Of a stretch of 30,260 bases of DNA, positions 17,968 through 26,448 are shown one piece after another. The translations under genes and the position numbers were made by a program. Below the pieces are notes generated by a model. That model was not told where the DNA came from and ran no database searches. It saw nothing but the letters and a program-made list of their open reading frames with translations. The DNA comes from Kangiellaceae bacterium (GTDB lineage Bacteria > Pseudomonadota > Gammaproteobacteria > Enterobacterales > Kangiellaceae), in assembly GCA_049600015.1 (NCBI GenBank), contig JBMYPE010000001.1:1-30260 (forward strand). Direction: 5' to 3'. The first letter of the stretch is position 1. Each line of letters opens with the position of its first letter.

Positions 17968-20265
17968 GTGATCGCTAAAACGCAGCCCTATTCTATCTTA
18001 TCTCCACATTATTTTAGAATTTTATCGCTTTTAGTTTTTCTTTGTTACTTTTGTATCGCTTCAAGTACTTTTGCAAAAGACCTCTATCTCCCTCACTTTC
18101 CACAACAAATCACTGTTGATGGAGAGCTCACAGAAGAAATTTGGCAAAAAGCCCTAAAGATCGATCTAAATTATGAAACTTCTCCTGGCGAGAATATAAA
18201 GCCAAGTGTGATTACACACGTTTATCTATATGAAAATGGCGAAACGCTATTTGTCGCATTTGACGCTAAAGATGACAATCCAAGTGAAATCAGAGATTAT
18301 TTGTTAGATCGAGATAACATCTGGAGTAGTGATTTTGTTGGCTTAAAATTTGACACCTTTGGCGAAAACAGAAAAGCATTTCAATTTTTTACTAACGCAA
18401 AAAGCATTCAAGCAGATGCGATTCAAGAAGATTTTAGGGGTGACGACTCAACTTGGGATGCCATTTGGCAGAGTAAAGCAAAAGTAAACTCGGATGGTTA
18501 TATTGTTGAAATGGCAATTCCTTTTAGCGCGCTTCGCTTTCCGTCTACAGGTCAAAAGCAATCTTGGGGAGTAGAGCTGTTAAGGTTTTTACCAAGAAAG
18601 TCCTTTCATAGAATTGCTAATTCACCGGTCGACCGAAGCATTGCTTGTAATATTTGCCAATTTGATAAACTAGTTGGTTTAACGAATATTAAGGAGTCAA
18701 AAAACCTACGCCTTATTCCTACTCTCACTTTAGGAAAAAATGAAACTCGAAGCTTTAACGACCAAAGCATTCCAAGTGCTTGGGAAAATGATGGTTTGGA
18801 TTCGAGTGTTGGGCTAGATCTACGATGGGGCATTACTCCAGAGACTTATCTTAACGCAACAATTAATCCTGATTTTTCTCAAGTAGAAGCAGATTCCGCT
18901 CAACTGGAAGTCAATTCTACTTTCTCGATTTTTGTCGATGAAAAACGACCATTTTTTTTAGATGGCGCAGACTATTTTAATACACCTCACCGCCTTGTAC
19001 ATACTCGTGATTTAATCTCACCAGACTATGGTATAAAAGTAACAGGGCAATCAAACAATCATAGTTATGGTGTTATTTCGGTTAAAGATGAGGCAACCAG
19101 TTTTCTTTTACCTAGCAGTCAAGGTTCCGATTTGCTGACCATGGATAATCTAGAAAGTGAAAACCAAATTTTGCGTTACAGCTATGACTTAGGTAATAAG
19201 AATAATGTGGGCGCACTGATTACAAATAAAACTGCGGATGGATACTCAAATCGAGTATCCTCAATTGATGGTAAATATTGGTTCAATCAAGATCATTCTT
19301 TTACCTACCAACTAATGAATTCAGAAAACCAATATTCAGATGCAATGCTAGAGAATGAAGATTTCGAGATTAATAAAGCAAAAATTTCGGATAACGCGTT
19401 TACTTTAAATTATGATTATCAAACTAGAAATTGGCGTGCCAAAGTAAGGCATGTTGATTTTGGTAAGGACTTTAGAGCAGATTTAGGTTTTATCCGAAAA
19501 GTTGATTTTACTAAGTCGGTGATTGGTATGCGAAGAATTTGGTTTCCATCACCAAATGAAAAGAAATGGTGGAATCGCGCTTCATTGGGCGGGGATTGGG
19601 ATATCACTAAAAACTCTGACGGAAAACTTTTAGAAAAAGAATTGGAAGCAAATGTTCGTGTAGAAGGTACTTATCAATCTGCAATAAATTTTGGGCTAGG
19701 ACAACGAGAAAGAGAATGGGATGATATTTATTTTGATGAAGATTTTTATTTCTTATTCTTAGCCGCTGAACCTATCTCCGGCCTTAAGCTTAATATTCGT
19801 CTTAATACTGGCGATACCATTGATTTCGTGAACAGTGAGTTAGGTAAATCAAAACGAATTTCACCTGGGATGGAGTGGCAGGCAAATCAAAATATACTAG
19901 TGAGATTAAATTTTTCTAAACAGTGGTTTGATTTGGATACAGGTGAATTATTTAATGCATCAGCGACTAACTTTAGATTTACTTATTTGTTTAATGAACG
20001 GAGCAGTCTTAGATTTACTTTACAAAAGTTAAACATTCAAAAAAACCCGGTGCTATACGATTCATACTTGGATGATTCGGTTGATAACGAAATCCCAAAA
20101 TTTATTTCTCTTGCAACTCAGCTTTTATATTCATATAAGGTTAACCCTCAAACTTTATTTTTTGCAGGCTATTCAGATAATGGTTTCCAAAATGATGAAA
20201 TGGCACATATTGAAAAAGAAAATCGTTCAGTGTTTATGAAGTTTTCGTATGCTTGGCAAATCTAG
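17968..20265 (+). CDS. CBM9-like (DOMON) domain plus DUF5916 outer-membrane beta-barrel protein
   Basis: GTG start with AAAGGAA RBS and a signal peptide. N-terminal ITVDGEL..EIW, IVEMAIPFSALRF. DUF5916-type LNATINPDFSQVEAD and EKRPFFLDG. C-terminal amphipathic strand FMKFSYAWQI. Confidence 0.82.
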   Translation: MIAKTQPYSILSPHYFRILSLLVFLCYFCIASSTFAKDLYLPHFPQQITVDGELTEEIWQKALKIDLNYETSPGENIKPSVITHVYLYENGETLFVAFDAKDDNPSEIRDYLLDRDNIWSSDFVGLKFDTFGENRKAFQFFTNAKSIQADAIQEDFRGDDSTWDAIWQSKAKVNSDGYIVEMAIPFSALRFPSTGQKQSWGVELLRFLPRKSFHRIANSPVDRSIACNICQFDKLVGLTNIKESKNLRLIPTLTLGKNETRSFNDQSIPSAWENDGLDSSVGLDLRWGITPETYLNATINPDFSQVEADSAQLEVNSTFSIFVDEKRPFFLDGADYFNTPHRLVHTRDLISPDYGIKVTGQSNNHSYGVISVKDEATSFLLPSSQGSDLLTMDNLESENQILRYSYDLGNKNNVGALITNKTADGYSNRVSSIDGKYWFNQDHSFTYQLMNSENQYSDAMLENEDFEINKAKISDNAFTLNYDYQTRNWRAKVRHVDFGKDFRADLGFIRKVDFTKSVIGMRRIWFPSPNEKKWWNRASLGGDWDITKNSDGKLLEKELEANVRVEGTYQSAINFGLGQREREWDDIYFDEDFYFLFLAAEPISGLKLNIRLNTGDTIDFVNSELGKSKRISPGMEWQANQNILVRLNFSKQWFDLDTGELFNASATNFRFTYLFNERSSLRFTLQKLNIQKNPVLYDSYLDDSVDNEIPKFISLATQLLYSYKVNPQTLFFAGYSDNGFQNDEMAHIEKENRSVFMKFSYAWQI

Positions 20266-20282
20266 AAAAAGGAAAATATAAT

Positions 20283-20885
20283 ATGTTAGTTTTATTAGAC
20301 AATGGACATGGCGGATTAATCAACGGCGACTACCAAACACCTGGAAAACGATCACCGATTTGGGATGATGGCTCACAACTTTTTGAAGGTGAATTTAACC
20401 GAGCCATTGTTGCCAGAATTATTGAATCTTTAACTAGTCTAAATATTGCTTATATTAACATCGCGCCAGAAATGAGAGATGTAACTTTAGCAACAAGGAT
20501 CAAAAGAGCAAATGATGCATACAAAAGAAAATGTTTTTATCTGAGCGTGCATTCTAATGCCGGAGGAGGACGAGGGTTTGAGGTTTTCACTTCCAGAGGG
20601 CATAGTAAAAGCGATAAAATTGCTACATTGTTTGGCGAAGAGTTTAAAAAAACCTTTCCAGATAAAAAACTAAGGGCCGACTATTCTGATGGAGATCTCG
20701 ATAAAGAAGCTGGTTTTGCGGTACTCAAGCGCACAAGAATGCCGGCCATATTAACAGAGAATTTTTTCATGGATAATGAAGAGGAGTGTAAAAATATTCT
20801 TATGACAAGACATGGCAGAGACGCAATTGCAGATTTTCATGTCAATGCCATAGTTAGAGCGCAAAAAGAGATATTTCTCGGATAG
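20283..20885 (+). CDS. N-acetylmuramoyl-L-alanine amidase (Amidase_3, Zn-dependent), single domain, no signal peptide
   Basis: ATG 20283 preferred over TTG 20253 because RBS AAAGGAAAA sits at ~20268-20276. All four catalytic motifs are present: DNGHGG (His), EGEFNR (Glu), SVHSNA (His), ILTENFFMDN (Glu). Confidence 0.9.
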   Translation: MLVLLDNGHGGLINGDYQTPGKRSPIWDDGSQLFEGEFNRAIVARIIESLTSLNIAYINIAPEMRDVTLATRIKRANDAYKRKCFYLSVHSNAGGGRGFEVFTSRGHSKSDKIATLFGEEFKKTFPDKKLRADYSDGDLDKEAGFAVLKRTRMPAILTENFFMDNEEECKNILMTRHGRDAIADFHVNAIVRAQKEIFLG

Positions 20886-20919: not shown

Positions 20920-22074
20920 TTATTGAAGCACTGCAACATTATTTGATTTTAATTTTCTTCTTCTTTTATCATCACTAAAATCACAGTCATCAATTGTTTG
21001 CTTTATATCTTCGTTCACCGATGCCCAGAGGTAGTAGCTATGCTCAACACTCCCGCCTACAATATCGGAGCAGTCAATTTGATGTATTTTGTTATGTAAT
21101 TGATTCGGTCTCGCTGCGCCAGCATGTCCTAACCTTTCAACATTGCCTTTTGTATAATCTGATATATACATTGCCACATCGCCTTTATTAAAATAAATAC
21201 TCACATGGCGACTTAATTGATGGACATTATTCATTGGTTGTTCCATTTCAAATACCGTATCATCCACATCGGGAGCACACATAAACACGTTTTTAAATAG
21301 TCGAGGAAGAACATCATTTTTGTCTTCTTTAACTAAAGAGGTTAAAGCATTTTGAAGCACAAAATTTCCCATTGAATGACATAGTAAATGCAGGTCTTGC
21401 CCACACTCTTCGAGTGACTTATCAAGCTTTAATTTAGATACGACTTTTTTAGGTCTCAATGTCATTAGAAAATCTCGCAATTTTAAAAATCCGCGAGCGA
21501 CTGCGATACCAGAATCAGTTGCATCTTGCTTATCAGATGCATAAGCTCTTCCTTTCATCATATCCCCATTAGAAGGCCAACTAAATAAAAAGACGGAAAC
21601 AGACTTTTTATTACTATGGTCATGGATAGTTTTACGGTTAAGCATAAGTTCAAGCGCCATAGCTGCGCCAACGGCTTCCCACCAATCAACATTAAATCCA
21701 TGTATGTTAATCATAATATCCTGTTTTTTATCCATGATGGTTTTTAATTCTTGAAAAAGTTTTTTTGACGCAAGTTGTGTTTCATCAAATCCAGTTTTGC
21801 CCCCAGCAGTGACGTCTTTATATGCGTTAATTTTCGCTTTATTTTTTGCAAGCTTAGTTAAATATTCTGACAATCCTTCGCCATCGCCAATACGTTTGTG
21901 TTTCGATTTTTGTAGAAACTCATTTATTTTGTTCTCAGTAACCGTCAACTCGATTTTACCAAAACGTAAATTACTATTTCGATCTGAACTAAAGTTTTTT
22001 CCATAACCAGAAGGCTTCCAACGATTCGTTCCTTCATGATTTCTATTGGTTGCGTAAAATAATGTAATTTTCAC
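20920..22074 (-). CDS. DUF900-family alpha/beta hydrolase (esterase/lipase-like)
   Basis: GTG start with AAAGGAG RBS. FYATNR, IHGFNV, FSWPS, nucleophile elbow CHSMG (21367-21381), APDVDD, D in NKGDVAM, His in EHSYY. Confidence 0.85.
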   Translation of the reverse strand: MKITLFYATNRNHEGTNRWKPSGYGKNFSSDRNSNLRFGKIELTVTENKINEFLQKSKHKRIGDGEGLSEYLTKLAKNKAKINAYKDVTAGGKTGFDETQLASKKLFQELKTIMDKKQDIMINIHGFNVDWWEAVGAAMALELMLNRKTIHDHSNKKSVSVFLFSWPSNGDMMKGRAYASDKQDATDSGIAVARGFLKLRDFLMTLRPKKVVSKLKLDKSLEECGQDLHLLCHSMGNFVLQNALTSLVKEDKNDVLPRLFKNVFMCAPDVDDTVFEMEQPMNNVHQLSRHVSIYFNKGDVAMYISDYTKGNVERLGHAGAARPNQLHNKIHQIDCSDIVGGSVEHSYYLWASVNEDIKQTIDDCDFSDDKRRRKLKSNNVAVLQ

Positions 22075-22095
22075 AAAGTTATACTCCTTTACTAT

Positions 22096-22141: not shown

Positions 22142-25100
22142 CTATTTACCAAATGTGTTTTTAAACAAGCTAGCACTGTTAGACACACTAATTAGTAATG
22201 TCGATAAGCCTGCAAGGGTGGTCAACATCAAATCAAAAATATCACTTGCTGTTAAAAAGAGCCATCCCAATATCGCAAACAAACCTATACTTACTAACCA
22301 TTTATAATTTTGCCATACCCCTTTTTCCGCCTGTTTTTGCATTGTAACAAAGGCCTCTGAAATTTCCGCGTTTTTGACAAACAATTGAAAGCTACTATTT
22401 GAAATAATCAATCTTTTTTTATGATCTAACTTAATAAAACCTTTGACTACCAAATCTTCGATCACAGACTTGTTTCTTGGGTTAGGTTTAATTCCGTTTG
22501 CTGTGTGAAAAAGTTCTAATTTTTCAGAGTTGCTACACTTAACCCATTTAAAACGATAAAGTGCGTTCGCATGTAATAACATAAACCTGTTTTCATTATA
22601 CTCAGTTTTACTATTTACATTACCTTGTGACAAATTAGTTTCTTGTGGCAATCTACTAACATTGTTTATTTCCATCCATTTATCTGCAACATATTTTAGC
22701 TCTTTAAAAACTGAACACTCGTTAACTATATAATCACCATCAACATTTTTGTACATTGTCTCAGGAACGACAACTTCAAATTTTGACAACAACCAGGACC
22801 AATTGAAAATTTCTTCATTTGTTAAATGGATTTCTGCGTTATTACTTGATTGTAAGAACTCTCTTTTAAATATTGACTTAATGGTGATGTCTTTAACAAA
22901 CAAATTTAATCTGTAGTTAGAGTTTTTAATCACCAAATTGACTATTTTTTTAAGTTGCCTAAAAAATAGTTTTCGTTTACTCGCATCAAAAAATAAACTG
23001 TCAACTCTGGTAATGTATAAATCTTGAAAATTATCAGACTCCTTAATATACACATTAAACATTGGTCTCTCTTCATTTTCAGTATAATCCAAAGCTGGCA
23101 TACTATTTTTAATATGATTAATTTGAGCCACCGAACGATCATCGTAATTGAGCATTAGATTATCATTTGGAACAGAAATCTCTTTATTCAAGTACTCAAG
23201 ACTTAAATCACCGAGATAATCTAGGAACTTCTCTGTTCCATAAAGTTTAGCTATTACTATTTTTCTATAAAAATAATTCCAAGCGACTAATGAAATAATG
23301 AGTAGTATGAACAGAACCGCTAATACTCGCCAATGAATTATTTCTATTTTTTTGTGCTCTTTCCCATCTCCAATATACTGAATATCAAAATGGTTTCTTA
23401 TATGTGAATAGGATAGAGAATGAGGGGCTAACTTAAATTTGTGTTGATGATTTTCTGCCTTCTCTCCTTCAATAACTACATTGTCATCTACGATTTGCTT
23501 GCTCGGAAAATAAAGCCCAGCCACTTCGCTTTTTCTATTTTTTGATTCTAGTTGGTTTGATTTGCTAACCAATTGATAATAATTTTCCACACCATTATTC
23601 ACAAAGTTAATAGAATTGCTTAACACCATTTGATATGCCACCGCTGATCCAACCAAAACAATCGAAATCACTAGCTTGCCTGTACTGTGACGGCTTACAA
23701 AACGACCAAGCATTAACAAAAATAAAAGGCCAATCAACAAGCTAATATTGTTAAATTGACTCATATTAACTAACGTCATCACGCTAAACAAAGAGATTAA
23801 CCACACGATTAAAGCATGGTTATTTATTTTTAAAACTGTCTCTAGTTCTAGGATTTTGGTGTATTTAGCAATGATTGGAAGTAAATATATTATCGCCGTA
23901 ATTAATAACAAAATGATGATCATTGAAATAGATATATAGGAATAAATATCTTCAACATAGGTGTTAATCGTATCAACTGGGTAAAATATAATAGTTGCCC
24001 AATCATCTATCCCACTTTCAGAAATTATGAAATTATAGGCTGTTCCGTGATAATGTCCTTTTATAAAAAACTGCTGCTTTTTATCATAGTTTTCTAAACC
24101 ATATTTAATAATATGTGTAATATTTTCATTTCCGTCGAGCTCAGCATAAAAATTTTCAGTGACACTTAATTCATCATGACTATGAAACAATACTTTACCT
24201 GAAGCACGCTCAACAATTGCGAACTGATAGTCCTCGGTTAGACCATTATTAATCGTCAATCCAGGCATAGTAATATCAGCACCGACGATTGAATTACTAT
24301 TCCATGGAATTGCAATGGTTGTTCCTCGTGTACCGTCAGTTAAATTAAGCAGTCGTTCAATATAAAATTTATGTTCATTCTTAATATCGCTTTTTTGATA
24401 TTTTCCAGATACAACCGATGCAAAGTAATTTCTATGACTGACGTTCAAAACGTCCATACCACTAGTTTTTTCTGCGTACTCAATATCAGGCAAGCACAAA
24501 TCACCATTTTCATTGGCATTAAACATTGTCCGTATCAAAGGTATTACTAAATTATCAGAGCCATTTGAATCGCTGATATAAGCTAGTTTTTTATAATTTT
24601 TATATTTGTCTAAGCAGCTCCCTACAGCAGCAATATCACTGCCTTCATCTGGGTATTTTTTCAGGTGTAGGTCTTTTATGGAATGATTAAATACTTCTTC
24701 GATGTCTACATTAGAACTTTCTCTCAATTCGTTCTTACTATAAAGGGTGCTATTGTGCTCAAGCTTGGTCAATACATCTGTAACATTACTCGTTAACCTC
24801 TCTTGAACAAGTGACAAATTTCGTTTGCCTTCGACTTGCTTTCTGTTTTTTTCTAATTCATAACCTATAAAGCTGAGTAAACCTGAATTAAAAAGAACGA
24901 TAAACGAAACCGACGAAACTACACACAAAGCTCTAAACAACCAACCAAAGCCAATATTTTTTTCGCTGATCATTAGCCTCACTAAAGCAACAACAAAGGT
25001 AAAAACACATAAAAAAGAAATAATAAATCCAGTTTTCTTAAAATTATTACCTTGTGAACTAGAGGTAAATTTTTTCTTTTTTATTAATCCAATAAGATAG

Positions 25101-26257
25101 AACGATTTTTCTTCACCAATTTCAAGTTCATCCTTTATTTTAAAGGGATAAACAAAAATTCGATATTTTGTTCCTGAAAAACTCATATCAGTGTAAGTGC
25201 TTACCGAAGGAGTGTCGTTATTGTTCTTATTTAGCTCGTTATTTTCTTTAGACGAGAACTTCCCAAACATTCCTATATCCAAATTTTCTTTAGATATTTG
25301 CGTAAACACGGAATTCATATTTGAAAAACCGATGCTAGAATGATTGTCGCCGGCAGATATTATGTTACCTTTTGAATCGCTAAATAAAAGGCCATCAAAC
25401 GATTCGTGTTGCAAAACAAAAATATCTTTTAGTTCGAGCTCTAAATAGGCATTTTGATTTTGTAGATCTTTTAGACAAACTAATAATTTATTCTTATTTA
25501 TTTTATAAGGTTGGGCACCTGATCGGCAAATGTCATTGGGTGCTTTCCCATTACTATACTTTATACTTTTGAACAAGTTCTGCAATAAATCAGGCACTTC
25601 ATTCAGGCTTGATTTAGTTAGATAATTTCGATCAAATTTTGAGCCTACTTGCTTCTTTAGATTTTTTAAGTCAGCCTTCAATTGTTCAATGTAATCCATC
25701 AGCAACTTGGAGTTTTGAACATTCATGTTTACCGACGCTTGATTGTGAAAATAGTCTTCTAACTTTCTTTTGTTTTTTTCTATTTTTAATTCGATCTTTT
25801 TAGATTCCAACTCCTCATGGGTTAAGCTTTGTTCAGTTGGTTTTTCTTTTTCCTTCAAGTTAGCTAGCTCTTTTTCCAACTTGTCAATATCCCGAACATA
25901 ATTATAAAACGCTTCCTTAGATAAATTTGACTTACCATAAGCTTTATCGAAGTTTGTTTTTAATTGGTTTATTTTTCGTTCGATCTGATTGGCGGTGACA
26001 ACAGTTTCATCAACTAATAATCCTGAGTACTTTATAGCGACTTTGAGTTGTAAAAAGCTCCGTTCAAACTCTTTCGTTATCTTTTCTAGGCTTTTAAATG
26101 CCTCTCTATTATTAACTGCATCACGTTCAGAATTACTTTGATAATAAAAATAAAATACTGATACAAACAGAAGTAACCCAAAAAATATGGGTAACTTGTT
26201 TAATTTGGAGGAGCTGATGTTTTCAGTAGTGGATGTGGTAGACATCGGTGTATTCAT
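22142..26257 (-). CDS. 1371-aa polytopic membrane protein with two extracytoplasmic Cache-like regions and an unassigned cytoplasmic C-terminal module
   Basis: About 10 hydrophobic segments by eye. Coiled coil at aa ~90-205. Cache-like strands FDGLLFSDSKGNII...YRIFVYPF...FYLIGLI. dCache-like SHRNYF...FYIERL...TTIAIP...VGADI...FAIVERASGKVLFHS. No kinase, GGDEF, EAL or MA motif. Confidence 0.75.
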   Translation of the reverse strand: MNTPMSTTSTTENISSSKLNKLPIFFGLLLFVSVFYFYYQSNSERDAVNNREAFKSLEKITKEFERSFLQLKVAIKYSGLLVDETVVTANQIERKINQLKTNFDKAYGKSNLSKEAFYNYVRDIDKLEKELANLKEKEKPTEQSLTHEELESKKIELKIEKNKRKLEDYFHNQASVNMNVQNSKLLMDYIEQLKADLKNLKKQVGSKFDRNYLTKSSLNEVPDLLQNLFKSIKYSNGKAPNDICRSGAQPYKINKNKLLVCLKDLQNQNAYLELELKDIFVLQHESFDGLLFSDSKGNIISAGDNHSSIGFSNMNSVFTQISKENLDIGMFGKFSSKENNELNKNNNDTPSVSTYTDMSFSGTKYRIFVYPFKIKDELEIGEEKSFYLIGLIKKKKFTSSSQGNNFKKTGFIISFLCVFTFVVALVRLMISEKNIGFGWLFRALCVVSSVSFIVLFNSGLLSFIGYELEKNRKQVEGKRNLSLVQERLTSNVTDVLTKLEHNSTLYSKNELRESSNVDIEEVFNHSIKDLHLKKYPDEGSDIAAVGSCLDKYKNYKKLAYISDSNGSDNLVIPLIRTMFNANENGDLCLPDIEYAEKTSGMDVLNVSHRNYFASVVSGKYQKSDIKNEHKFYIERLLNLTDGTRGTTIAIPWNSNSIVGADITMPGLTINNGLTEDYQFAIVERASGKVLFHSHDELSVTENFYAELDGNENITHIIKYGLENYDKKQQFFIKGHYHGTAYNFIISESGIDDWATIIFYPVDTINTYVEDIYSYISISMIIILLLITAIIYLLPIIAKYTKILELETVLKINNHALIVWLISLFSVMTLVNMSQFNNISLLIGLLFLLMLGRFVSRHSTGKLVISIVLVGSAVAYQMVLSNSINFVNNGVENYYQLVSKSNQLESKNRKSEVAGLYFPSKQIVDDNVVIEGEKAENHQHKFKLAPHSLSYSHIRNHFDIQYIGDGKEHKKIEIIHWRVLAVLFILLIISLVAWNYFYRKIVIAKLYGTEKFLDYLGDLSLEYLNKEISVPNDNLMLNYDDRSVAQINHIKNSMPALDYTENEERPMFNVYIKESDNFQDLYITRVDSLFFDASKRKLFFRQLKKIVNLVIKNSNYRLNLFVKDITIKSIFKREFLQSSNNAEIHLTNEEIFNWSWLLSKFEVVVPETMYKNVDGDYIVNECSVFKELKYVADKWMEINNVSRLPQETNLSQGNVNSKTEYNENRFMLLHANALYRFKWVKCSNSEKLELFHTANGIKPNPRNKSVIEDLVVKGFIKLDHKKRLIISNSSFQLFVKNAEISEAFVTMQKQAEKGVWQNYKWLVSIGLFAILGWLFLTASDIFDLMLTTLAGLSTLLISVSNSASLFKNTFGK

Positions 26258-26280: not shown

Positions 26281-26309
26281 TTTATACTCCTATAAATTCA
26301 GCTTATCAA
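26281..26309 (-). promoter_or_regulatory. sigma70 promoter of the 1371-aa gene
   Basis: Minus strand TTGATA-17nt-TATAAA, 23 nt before the ATG. A TCTCAA-a-TTGAGA palindrome (26311-26323) abuts the -35. Confidence 0.65.
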
Positions 26310-26399
26310 ATCTCAAATTGAGACAATAATACGGATTCAACGCGCATCGAAGTGGAAGCACTCATGCCTCTTTAACGCTCATACTTCTTCTCTGGACAT

Positions 26400-26423
26400 A
26401 AAAAAGCGACCCTAAGGTCGCTT
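26400..26423 (-). terminator. Intrinsic terminator of fadBA
   Basis: A6-GCGACC-ctaa-GGTCGC-TT, giving a hairpin plus U6 on the minus strand, 25 nt past the fadA stop. Confidence 0.9.
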
Positions 26424-26448
26424 CATATTCCAACTTAAAATTAAAAGA

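Follow-up and report, generated by a model that had tools for sequence, protein, structure and literature searches.

The DNA considered here is a 30,260-nucleotide (nt) window of a Kangiellaceae bacterium (contig JBMYPE010000001.1 of assembly GCA_049600015.1, positions 1 to 30,260). On its minus strand, from 22142 to 26257, an uninterrupted open reading frame of 1371 codons, starting with ATG, encodes a large membrane protein, P0001. Our main finding is that P0001 is an architectural variant joining two known kinds of modules, a Cache sensor and a STAND-type switch, within a sizeable unannotated family. On balance, and with a confidence somewhat better than even, the protein is best explained as a ligand-gated conformational or oligomerisation switch, acting through a periplasmic dCache domain, a dead nucleoside triphosphatase (NTPase) module and a unit composed of a winged helix and a transmembrane (TM) hairpin. 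As shown by sequence relationships, P0001 is no isolated oddity but a member of a family of at least 861 clusters, some of which carry an intact P-loop.

This family was delineated with HMMER, in an exhaustive search among 1.84 billion representatives of clusters at 50% identity. With E-value cut-offs of 1e-3, 1e-10 and 1e-30, the search yielded 861, 244 and 42 representatives, respectively, whereas a word-index search recovered 5 relatives. The members are polytopic inner-membrane proteins of 1,100-1,900 amino acids (aa), most of them of 1,200-1,900 aa, and their only names are 'hypothetical protein' or 'Cache domain-containing protein'. Named sources of the relatives are Arsukibacterium, Pleionea, Colwellia, Nitrosomonas, Methylococcales, Calditrichaeota and KSB1. 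Conservation within the family peaks in the central periplasmic dCache region and in the last ~150 residues (aa ~1220-1368). As a whole protein, P0001 gave no significant match in Pfam, NCBIfam, PADLOC or PDB sequences. Likewise, no kinase, methyl-accepting (MA), GGDEF/EAL or phosphatase domain, nor any other Pfam or NCBIfam domain, was detected in it, in line with the first-pass annotation of this DNA, which had described a receptor-like protein with no known output domain. The same annotation had considered the architecture to be undescribed and, indeed, no paper dealing with a membrane family that combines Cache, P-loop and winged-helix elements was found in the searched literature. With its at least 861 clusters and a cytoplasmic part having no Pfam model, the family points to a gap in domain annotation as it stands.

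The general layout of P0001 is apparent from a 19-residue Kyte-Doolittle hydropathy scan. Ten peaks of TM grade were found, at the very places where TM1, TM2-3, five further TM helices and a terminal hairpin had initially been proposed. An AlphaFold2 model of aa 400-1371, built with 69 homologues, reached a mean predicted local distance difference test (pLDDT) score of 80.4 and a predicted TM-score of 0.78. The limits of the successive segments are given in Table 1.

The best-defined sensor lies between TM3 and TM4 (aa 466-780). In this region, the pLDDT of the model is mostly above 85. A Foldseek search of the PDB retrieved only dCache ligand-binding domains of chemoreceptors and kinases (E 1.3e-5 to 1e-3; TM-score by target up to 0.71), including those of McpH, PctB, Mlp24 and DctB (E 1.3e-5 to 1e-4). 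VIA-align, which is independent of Foldseek, gave a Z score of 16.3 to 3lif_B, followed by a run of Cache/PDC domains with Z above 9; all of the top 37 rows corresponded to Cache/PDC sensor domains. The Pfam dCache_1 model (PF02743) has no match in P0001 at E<=0.1. It is matched directly by 8 of the 28 long distant members of the family and by several P-loop-bearing members, and comparison of the family profile with four dCache_1 sequences using hhalign gave a probability of 67% (E 5e-5, 163 columns). In this alignment, the SHRNYF sequence of P0001 faces the RxWY motif (R-x-W-Y-K) of the dCache_1 sequences. Both of the motifs that had first drawn attention to the region were located where expected, SHRNYF at 24422-24439 (aa 607-612) and GKVLFHS at 24179-24199 (aa 687-693). 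Across the family, little or no variation is seen at R609, Y611, G687, H692, E701 and N702, and a family-specific motif, GxVLFHSDxxRSLxEN, is strongly conserved. Taken together, model and alignments indicate that aa 466-780 adopt a true dCache fold.

Cache domains are the commonest extracellular sensors in bacteria, and they typically sense small molecules. As in the dCache_1 ligand-binding domains of PctA/PctB, Mlp24, McpH, DctB and rpHK1S-Z16, the domain of P0001 comprises a long N-terminal helix and two tandem PDC/PAS-like modules inserted between TM helices; it shares with them the RxWY-like sequence and aligns with VIA Z scores of 12-16. Several features nevertheless set P0001 apart from these receptors. 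Its dCache domain feeds no MA, HisKA, GGDEF/EAL, PP2C or cyclase output, it is preceded by an extra periplasmic domain and a TM hairpin, and it falls below the Pfam threshold while carrying the family-specific GxVLFHSDxxRSLxEN motif.

The first periplasmic region is less well defined. Scans with Pfam, NCBIfam and PADLOC returned for aa ~42-228 only weak SMC-like or coiled-coil compositional noise. This coiled-coil part (aa ~40-225) is largely specific to P0001, since the domain coming after it already begins at aa ~80-100 in most relatives. This next domain, a globular unit of ~170 aa (D1, aa 225-410), was found by jackhmmer in 111 of 155 relatives. Comparison of D1 with the dCache domain of the family itself gave an hhalign probability of 52%, restricted to the last hairpin. 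ESM features relate D1 to Cache/PDC clusters with scores of 0.91-0.93, at the level of a lead. No match was obtained between D1 and 19 sCache_2 domains, a comparison devoid of power as the verified dCache domain failed in it too. Hence, of the two Cache-like sensors originally proposed, the one at aa 466-780 stands, with its VIA Z score of 16.3 and Foldseek E value of ~1e-5, whereas a Cache identity of aa 40-408 did not emerge from the hhalign comparisons (52% above, 0.5% below).

Between TM8 and the terminal hairpin lies a module (aa ~1000-1320) whose ancestry is best read from its distant relatives. In the AlphaFold2 model of the module alone (89 homologues, pLDDT 84.4), an alpha/beta part at the N-terminus, a bundle of helices and a winged helix can be distinguished. 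P0001 has no Walker A motif (GxxxxGK[ST]), nor do 154 of the 155 relatives nearest to it. At the homologous position, the motif is present in P0131 from KSB1 and in the subfamily of P0166, P0167 and P0175, where it reads GPPNAGKS, GPPASGKS, GVPFSGKS or GPPGSGKT; P0001 has NLMLNY-DDRSVAQ there. Further along, the LYITRVD strand of P0001, ending with D1086, is aligned with the Walker B strand IVAVDHLE of P0131 and relatives, the column of D1086 being occupied by E in 64 and by D in 18 of 89 sequences, and RLNLFV, a sensor-1-like strand, is aligned with their TVVVFST. R1095 is also conserved in the core remnant of P0001. The P-loop-bearing relatives thus share a GPPxxGK[ST] Walker A and an hhhhDHxE Walker B, and hhalign relates their modules to the P-loop-less ones with a probability of 99.94% (E 3.9e-37), in an alignment of 225 columns that starts with the Walker B strand and runs to the end. 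P0131 (1087 aa) is a member without the first periplasmic domain.

The Walker A and B motifs of the distant members are the decisive evidence, at the sequence level, and they argue that the module of P0001 descends from a P-loop NTPase. Degeneration of the P-loop is confined to one clade. Since P0001 and its near relatives are without P-loop, P0001 cannot use ATP in the ordinary way. The kinship of the intact modules points in the same direction: they show a weak match to the AAA+ protein Hda (E 1.6e-4) and, at the lead level, their ESM-feature neighbours (0.87-0.88) are all of the STAND/AAA type (nSTAND2, NACHT, AAA_16, AAA_22, AAA_35). Pfam AAA and STAND models do not match even these intact P-loop-bearing modules, and searches of Pfam, NCBIfam, PADLOC and PDB sequences with module profiles gave nothing usable. 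The NTPase family to which the intact modules belong therefore seems to be itself unmodelled in Pfam.

Structural comparisons bring consistent, if moderate, support. The best VIA matches of the isolated module are the Pyrococcus Walker-type ATPase 2qen (Z 9.4), the TIR-NLR resistosome 9qlv (Z 8.2), the archaeal AAA+ protein 2fna (Z 8.1), the TPR-STAND protein 6mfv (Z 7.7), the wheat resistosome 9h2l (Z 7.1), the NRC1 NB-ARC domain (Z 7.0) and the Drosophila apoptosome Dark (Z 7.0). These seven are all STAND or archaeal AAA+ proteins (Z 7.0-9.4; entries 6s2p and 4v4l are among them), and CED-4, MalT and ORC/Cdc6 come behind (Z 5.5-6.6). Among the Swiss-Prot models of the AlphaFold database, plant NLRs, CED-4, ORC1 and archaeal ATPases make up most of the best matches, in alignments that extend from the Walker B strand to the winged-helix domain. 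A Foldseek search with the module alone gave no significant match (E >=0.05). As this evidence is moderate, it backs that from sequence and does not stand alone. The modelled layout moderately resembles a STAND or ORC/Cdc6 oligomerisation domain, in which a helical domain and a winged helix follow an alpha/beta core. The initial proposal, in which a winged helix comes after a degenerate AAA+/STAND-like core with no Walker A, is thus borne out by homology to members with GPPxxGK[ST] and DHxE motifs together with the STAND and ORC matches.

In bacteria as well as in plants and animals, innate immunity and cell-death signalling have STAND NTPases as their core switches. With the STAND proteins (plant NLRs, CED-4, Dark, MalT, PAB2304/SSO1545) and with ORC/Cdc6, P0001 appears to have in common the order of the three parts. 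Its P-loop-bearing relatives have a Walker A, a Walker B and a sensor-1-like strand, and the best structural neighbours of its module come from these groups. Unlike STAND proteins, however, P0001 lacks Walker A and has no cytoplasmic sensor made of TPR, WD or LRR repeats, its sensing part being periplasmic and N-terminal. Moreover, its module is anchored to the membrane at both ends, and Pfam STAND/AAA models miss even the intact relatives.

The helical and winged-helix part is the most conserved of the family, with W1238, C1241, E1245, L1249, N1259, P1260, N1262, G1273, N1287, F1290, A1297 and E1298. Such conservation may evoke a membrane-tethered transcription factor, in which the winged helix would bind DNA and the NTPase remnant would be a mere linker; DNA-binding winged helices of the ArsR, MarR and SmtB types are indeed found among the VIA matches (Z 6-7). 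In ToxR/CadC-like regulators, an N-terminal cytoplasmic DNA-binding winged helix-turn-helix is followed by a single TM helix and a periplasmic sensor. The order is reversed in P0001, which has ten TM helices and a C-terminal winged helix placed between TM8 and TM9. In addition, the best matches are winged-helix domains of STAND and ORC proteins, each aligned along with the helical domain before it. The winged helix of P0001 has a membrane anchor on either side and lies ~20 residues before TM9. Its putative recognition helix, SVIEDLVVKG, is not basic but acidic and hydrophobic, and none of the conserved residues (N, P, S, F, A and E) is basic. A DNA-binding role for the winged helix is therefore unlikely, and we consider the transcription factor model as a whole to be quite improbable.

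Returning to the ligand-gated switch, the following sequence of events may be envisaged. A ligand would bind the periplasmic dCache domain, and occupancy of this domain would be passed through TM4-TM8 to the dead NOD-like module. The module would then switch its conformation or oligomeric state without nucleotide. Finally, the conserved unit formed by the winged helix and the TM hairpin would give the output, not through an enzymatic domain but either by a change in the membrane, such as an ion leak or a pore, or by recruitment of a partner. A periplasmic dCache domain wired through a polytopic membrane region to a STAND-like module would represent a new input-output logic for both. The P-loop-bearing and P-loop-less branches would offer a natural experiment on switching without nucleotide.

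Several observations weigh against this model. The module at aa ~1000-1320 is placed in the cytoplasm by TM parity, so that the topology is inferred. Comparison of D1 with four dCache_1 sequences by hhalign gave no match (0.5%), under conditions where the dCache control gave 67%. The structural matches of the module are moderate, the highest Z score of 9.4 being just above the usual noise ceiling of 7-8 with a TM-score of ~0.2, and they cover mainly the helical and winged-helix half, not the alpha/beta core. Finally, loss of the P-loop could also be a sign of decay, an interpretation at odds with the strong conservation of the C-terminal unit. According to this last hypothesis, members of the P-loop-less clade would be non-functional, or merely structural, membrane proteins nearing loss. 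Loss of Walker A, very fast divergence and repeated absence in congeners would be accounted for. On the other hand, the frame of 1371 codons is intact, at least 89 diverse sequences share more than 20 invariant or almost invariant residues in the dCache domain and in the unit of winged helix and hairpin, and the P-loop-less form constitutes most of the family. Decay is thus a very unlikely explanation.

Table 1. Segments of P0001 and associated features in the window, with the basis of each assignment (Z scores and hhalign values are given in the text).
Feature	Coordinates	Strand	Basis
Whole gene, P0001, 1371 aa	22142..26257	-	open frame, ATG start
TM1, aa 19-37	26147..26203	-	Kyte-Doolittle peak 1.81
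Periplasmic coiled-coil stalk, aa ~40-225	25583..26140	-	weak SMC/coiled-coil compositional matches
Periplasmic domain D1, aa 225-410, possibly PDC/Cache-like	25028..25585	-	jackhmmer conservation; hhalign and ESM leads only
TM2-TM3 hairpin, aa 412-465 (peaks 412-430, 443-465)	24863..25024	-	hydropathy; model helices with pLDDT >85
Periplasmic dCache domain, aa 466-780	23918..24862	-	VIA-align, Foldseek, hhalign, Pfam matches of relatives
TM4-TM7, aa 779-880 (peaks 779-797, 815-833, 837-855, 862-880)	23618..23923	-	hydropathy and model helices
Low-confidence loop with little conservation, aa 881-972, periplasmic as judged by TM parity	23342..23617	-	pLDDT <50, model residues 524-571
TM8, aa 973-1002 (peak 973-995)	23252..23341	-	hydropathy peak 2.59
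Putative P-loop NTPase alpha/beta core remnant, aa ~1030-1165	22763..23170	-	aligned to P0131 and relatives; hhalign
Helical domain and winged helix, aa ~1170-1300	22358..22750	-	conservation; VIA-align
C-terminal TM hairpin TM9-TM10, aa 1320-1358 (peaks 1320-1338, 1340-1358), small-residue-rich	22184..22300	-	hydropathy; model helices 915-969; family consensus
DUF900 alpha/beta hydrolase, 384 aa, HSMGN serine motif, no signal peptide	20920..22074	-	Pfam E 1e-28
10-bp direct repeat AGGAGTATAA, left copy	26282..26291	-	2 copies in window vs 0.06 expected
10-bp direct repeat AGGAGTATAA, right copy, doubles as DUF900 ribosome-binding site	22079..22088	-	same count

On the minus strand, the gene encoding P0001 follows fadA and is itself followed, after 67 nt, by the gene of a DUF900 hydrolase. 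It has its own upstream region, downstream of the fadA terminator (26403-26424). The neighbours in the window are fadBA, immediately upstream, and the DUF900, amidase and DUF5916 genes. No terminator-like site was found between the P0001 and DUF900 genes, which are probably co-transcribed. In two genomes of the same genus that do not have the gene, G007 and G008, the DUF900 orthologue comes directly after fadA, with gaps of 178 and 238 nt, respectively (L075 83-2357; L073 8663-11210). DNA homology to these genomes ends at about 26363-26381 and resumes at 22073, leaving 4.2 kb in between. On either side of this segment stands one of the only two copies of AGGAGTATAA present in the window. The pair of AGGAGTATAA repeats could correspond to a target-site duplication or to a microhomology used for insertion or deletion. 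In G001 (L072 4409-10406), a split S15 X-Pro dipeptidyl-peptidase gene is located between fadA and the DUF900 orthologue. The spacer between fadA and DUF900 is a variable site across the congeners.

This arrangement raises the possibility that P0001 is a dedicated regulator of the adjacent hydrolase, both genes forming a sensor-lipase module that would feed fatty acids to FadBA. The two genes are on the same strand, separated by a short gap with no terminator-like site, the insertion replaced the native upstream region of the DUF900 gene, and the arrangement, with fadBA immediately upstream, is syntenic in G002. However, DUF900 orthologues with 69-73% identity adjoin fadA without the big gene in G007 and G008, or are found elsewhere in G014, and most family members have no hydrolase neighbour. 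Prediction of a complex between the module (aa 1000-1322) and the DUF900 protein gave a score of 0.00, which brings no support and is evidence neither for nor against binding. A dedicated regulator of this kind is, in our opinion, unlikely. DUF900 as an obligatory partner was rejected, as its orthologues adjoin fadA without the big gene in G007 and G008. The DUF900 protein may be functionally tied to fadBA, in which case it would be an esterase or lipase that supplies beta-oxidation.

The gene itself behaves differently from its surroundings. Its GC content is 0.31-0.34, as compared with 0.38-0.41 in the flanks. The syntenic orthologue in G002 encodes a protein only 37-40% identical over the whole length, whereas FadA and DUF900 are 92% and 82% identical. 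At the DNA level (L011), identity to G002 is ~81% over fadA and ~73.5% over DUF900 and the last ~150 codons of the gene (22142-22600), while the remaining ~3.7 kb are nearly unalignable (63% over 514 nt). This mosaic suggests replacement of an allele, or strongly accelerated divergence, of the portion comprising the sensor, the TM helices and the nucleotide-binding domain. Among near relatives, 4 of 41 genomes have the gene, its own genome included. In the order as a whole, it was found in 12 of 401 sampled genomes (3%), belonging to 9 of 110 genera, and in none of 399 other genomes sampled across the class, which indicates rarity, not absence. Altogether, comparative data indicate that the gene is an accessory, fast-diverging single-gene insertion or indel. 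This would fit either niche-specific chemosensing or a role in conflict.

Lipase-type genes stand next to family members on the same strand in three independent contexts, and they belong to three families, DUF900, Lipase_3 and patatin. In a metagenome-assembled genome of Colwellia (L001 12400-13485), the gene of a class-3 lipase with a GHSLGG motif and no signal peptide is found 92 nt downstream of P0004. In a Nitrosomonas contig (L016 3936-4994), a patatin gene upstream of P0045 ends just before the catalytic DGG motif. Between this gene and that of P0045, a 92-aa open reading frame corresponds to the split-off N-terminus (TM1) of the big gene, which points to an assembly frameshift or to a decaying locus. 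A Tle1-like gene near P0059 was not counted, as it lies 5.5 kb away, behind genes on the opposite strand. In ~12 other independent contexts, the family genes are solo among housekeeping genes. The adjacency to lipases exceeds chance expectation but is fragile. Given the genus-level pairing of fadBA with DUF900, the truncated patatin gene, the solo contexts and a complex prediction without verdict, partnership with a phospholipase is a minority possibility. Two Band_7/SPFH genes occur just downstream of the P-loop-bearing P0166 of Calditrichaeota (L065 10680-12607), which may be a coincidence.

In view of the population behaviour of the gene and of the STAND ancestry of its module, a defence-type role has to be regarded as a live alternative. 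P0001 would then be a membrane-embedded, STAND-derived sensor for abortive infection or exclusion, with a role comparable to those of Avs, KAP/PifA or Tmn: in response to an envelope cue, its own TM helices would permeabilise the membrane or, in some genomes, an adjacent cytoplasmic phospholipase would be switched on. Precedents exist both for inactive STAND components and for P-loop defence proteins of the membrane. The vWA-MoxR ternary conflict systems retain a catalytically inactive STAND module, iSTAND, as a conserved part of their signalling (Kaur et al. 2020, PMC7159879), and the membrane P-loop defence proteins Tmn and PifA act on membrane or ion balance (PMC13001434). Furthermore, a bactericidal phospholipase (bioRxiv 10.64898/2026.06.10.730825) and a domain fused to ROCO (PMC11378527) are among the relatives of DUF900. 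The patchy distribution, the single-gene indel with its flanking repeat, the low GC content, the extreme divergence as compared with the flanks and the presence of same-strand lipase neighbours of three families (DUF900 here and in G002) are also in favour of such a role.

The resemblance to these systems is only partial. P0001 has, like iSTAND proteins, an inactive STAND-like module, but the latter proteins have neither Cache domains nor its TM architecture, and no vWA or MoxR gene is present near P0001 or was seen in ~15 other contexts of the family. Like KAP (PifA) and YobI/Tmn proteins, it is a large single polypeptide combining TM helices with a signalling NTPase fold. In those proteins, however, the TM helices are in or beside an active P-loop domain and the sensors are cytoplasmic, whereas P0001 has ten TM helices, periplasmic sensors, a dead P-loop and a TM hairpin that comes after the winged helix; neither Pfam nor PADLOC places P0001 in the KAP or YobI (Tmn) families. 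More generally, PADLOC returned no match, the ~12 solo contexts are not defence islands, DUF900 stays next to fadA in congeners without the gene, the truncated patatin gene stops short of its DGG motif, and small molecules are the usual ligands of Cache domains. Taking both sides into account, a function in conflict or defence appears possible but rather doubtful.

A more ambitious view, extending the ligand-gated switch to the entire family, may also be imagined. The family would consist of unrecognised receptors that are membrane-embedded, Cache-gated and STAND-derived; they would oligomerise in the membrane, where the unit of winged helix and TM hairpin would serve as a ligand-gated pore or a death switch. 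The family would thereby provide the first example of a STAND-type switch responding to a small-molecule or envelope cue from outside the cytoplasm. ATP-dependent (P-loop-bearing) and ATP-independent (P-loop-less) branches would coexist, and some lineages would have recruited phospholipase partners. This picture is fairly improbable.

Two further observations concern the surroundings of the DUF900 gene. In the window, an Amidase_3 gene with no evident signal peptide (20253-20885, plus strand) overlaps the end of a CBM9/DUF5916 gene (17968-20265, plus strand) and is convergent with DUF900. In G014, the DUF900 orthologue is immediately preceded, on its own strand, by an Amidase_3 gene.

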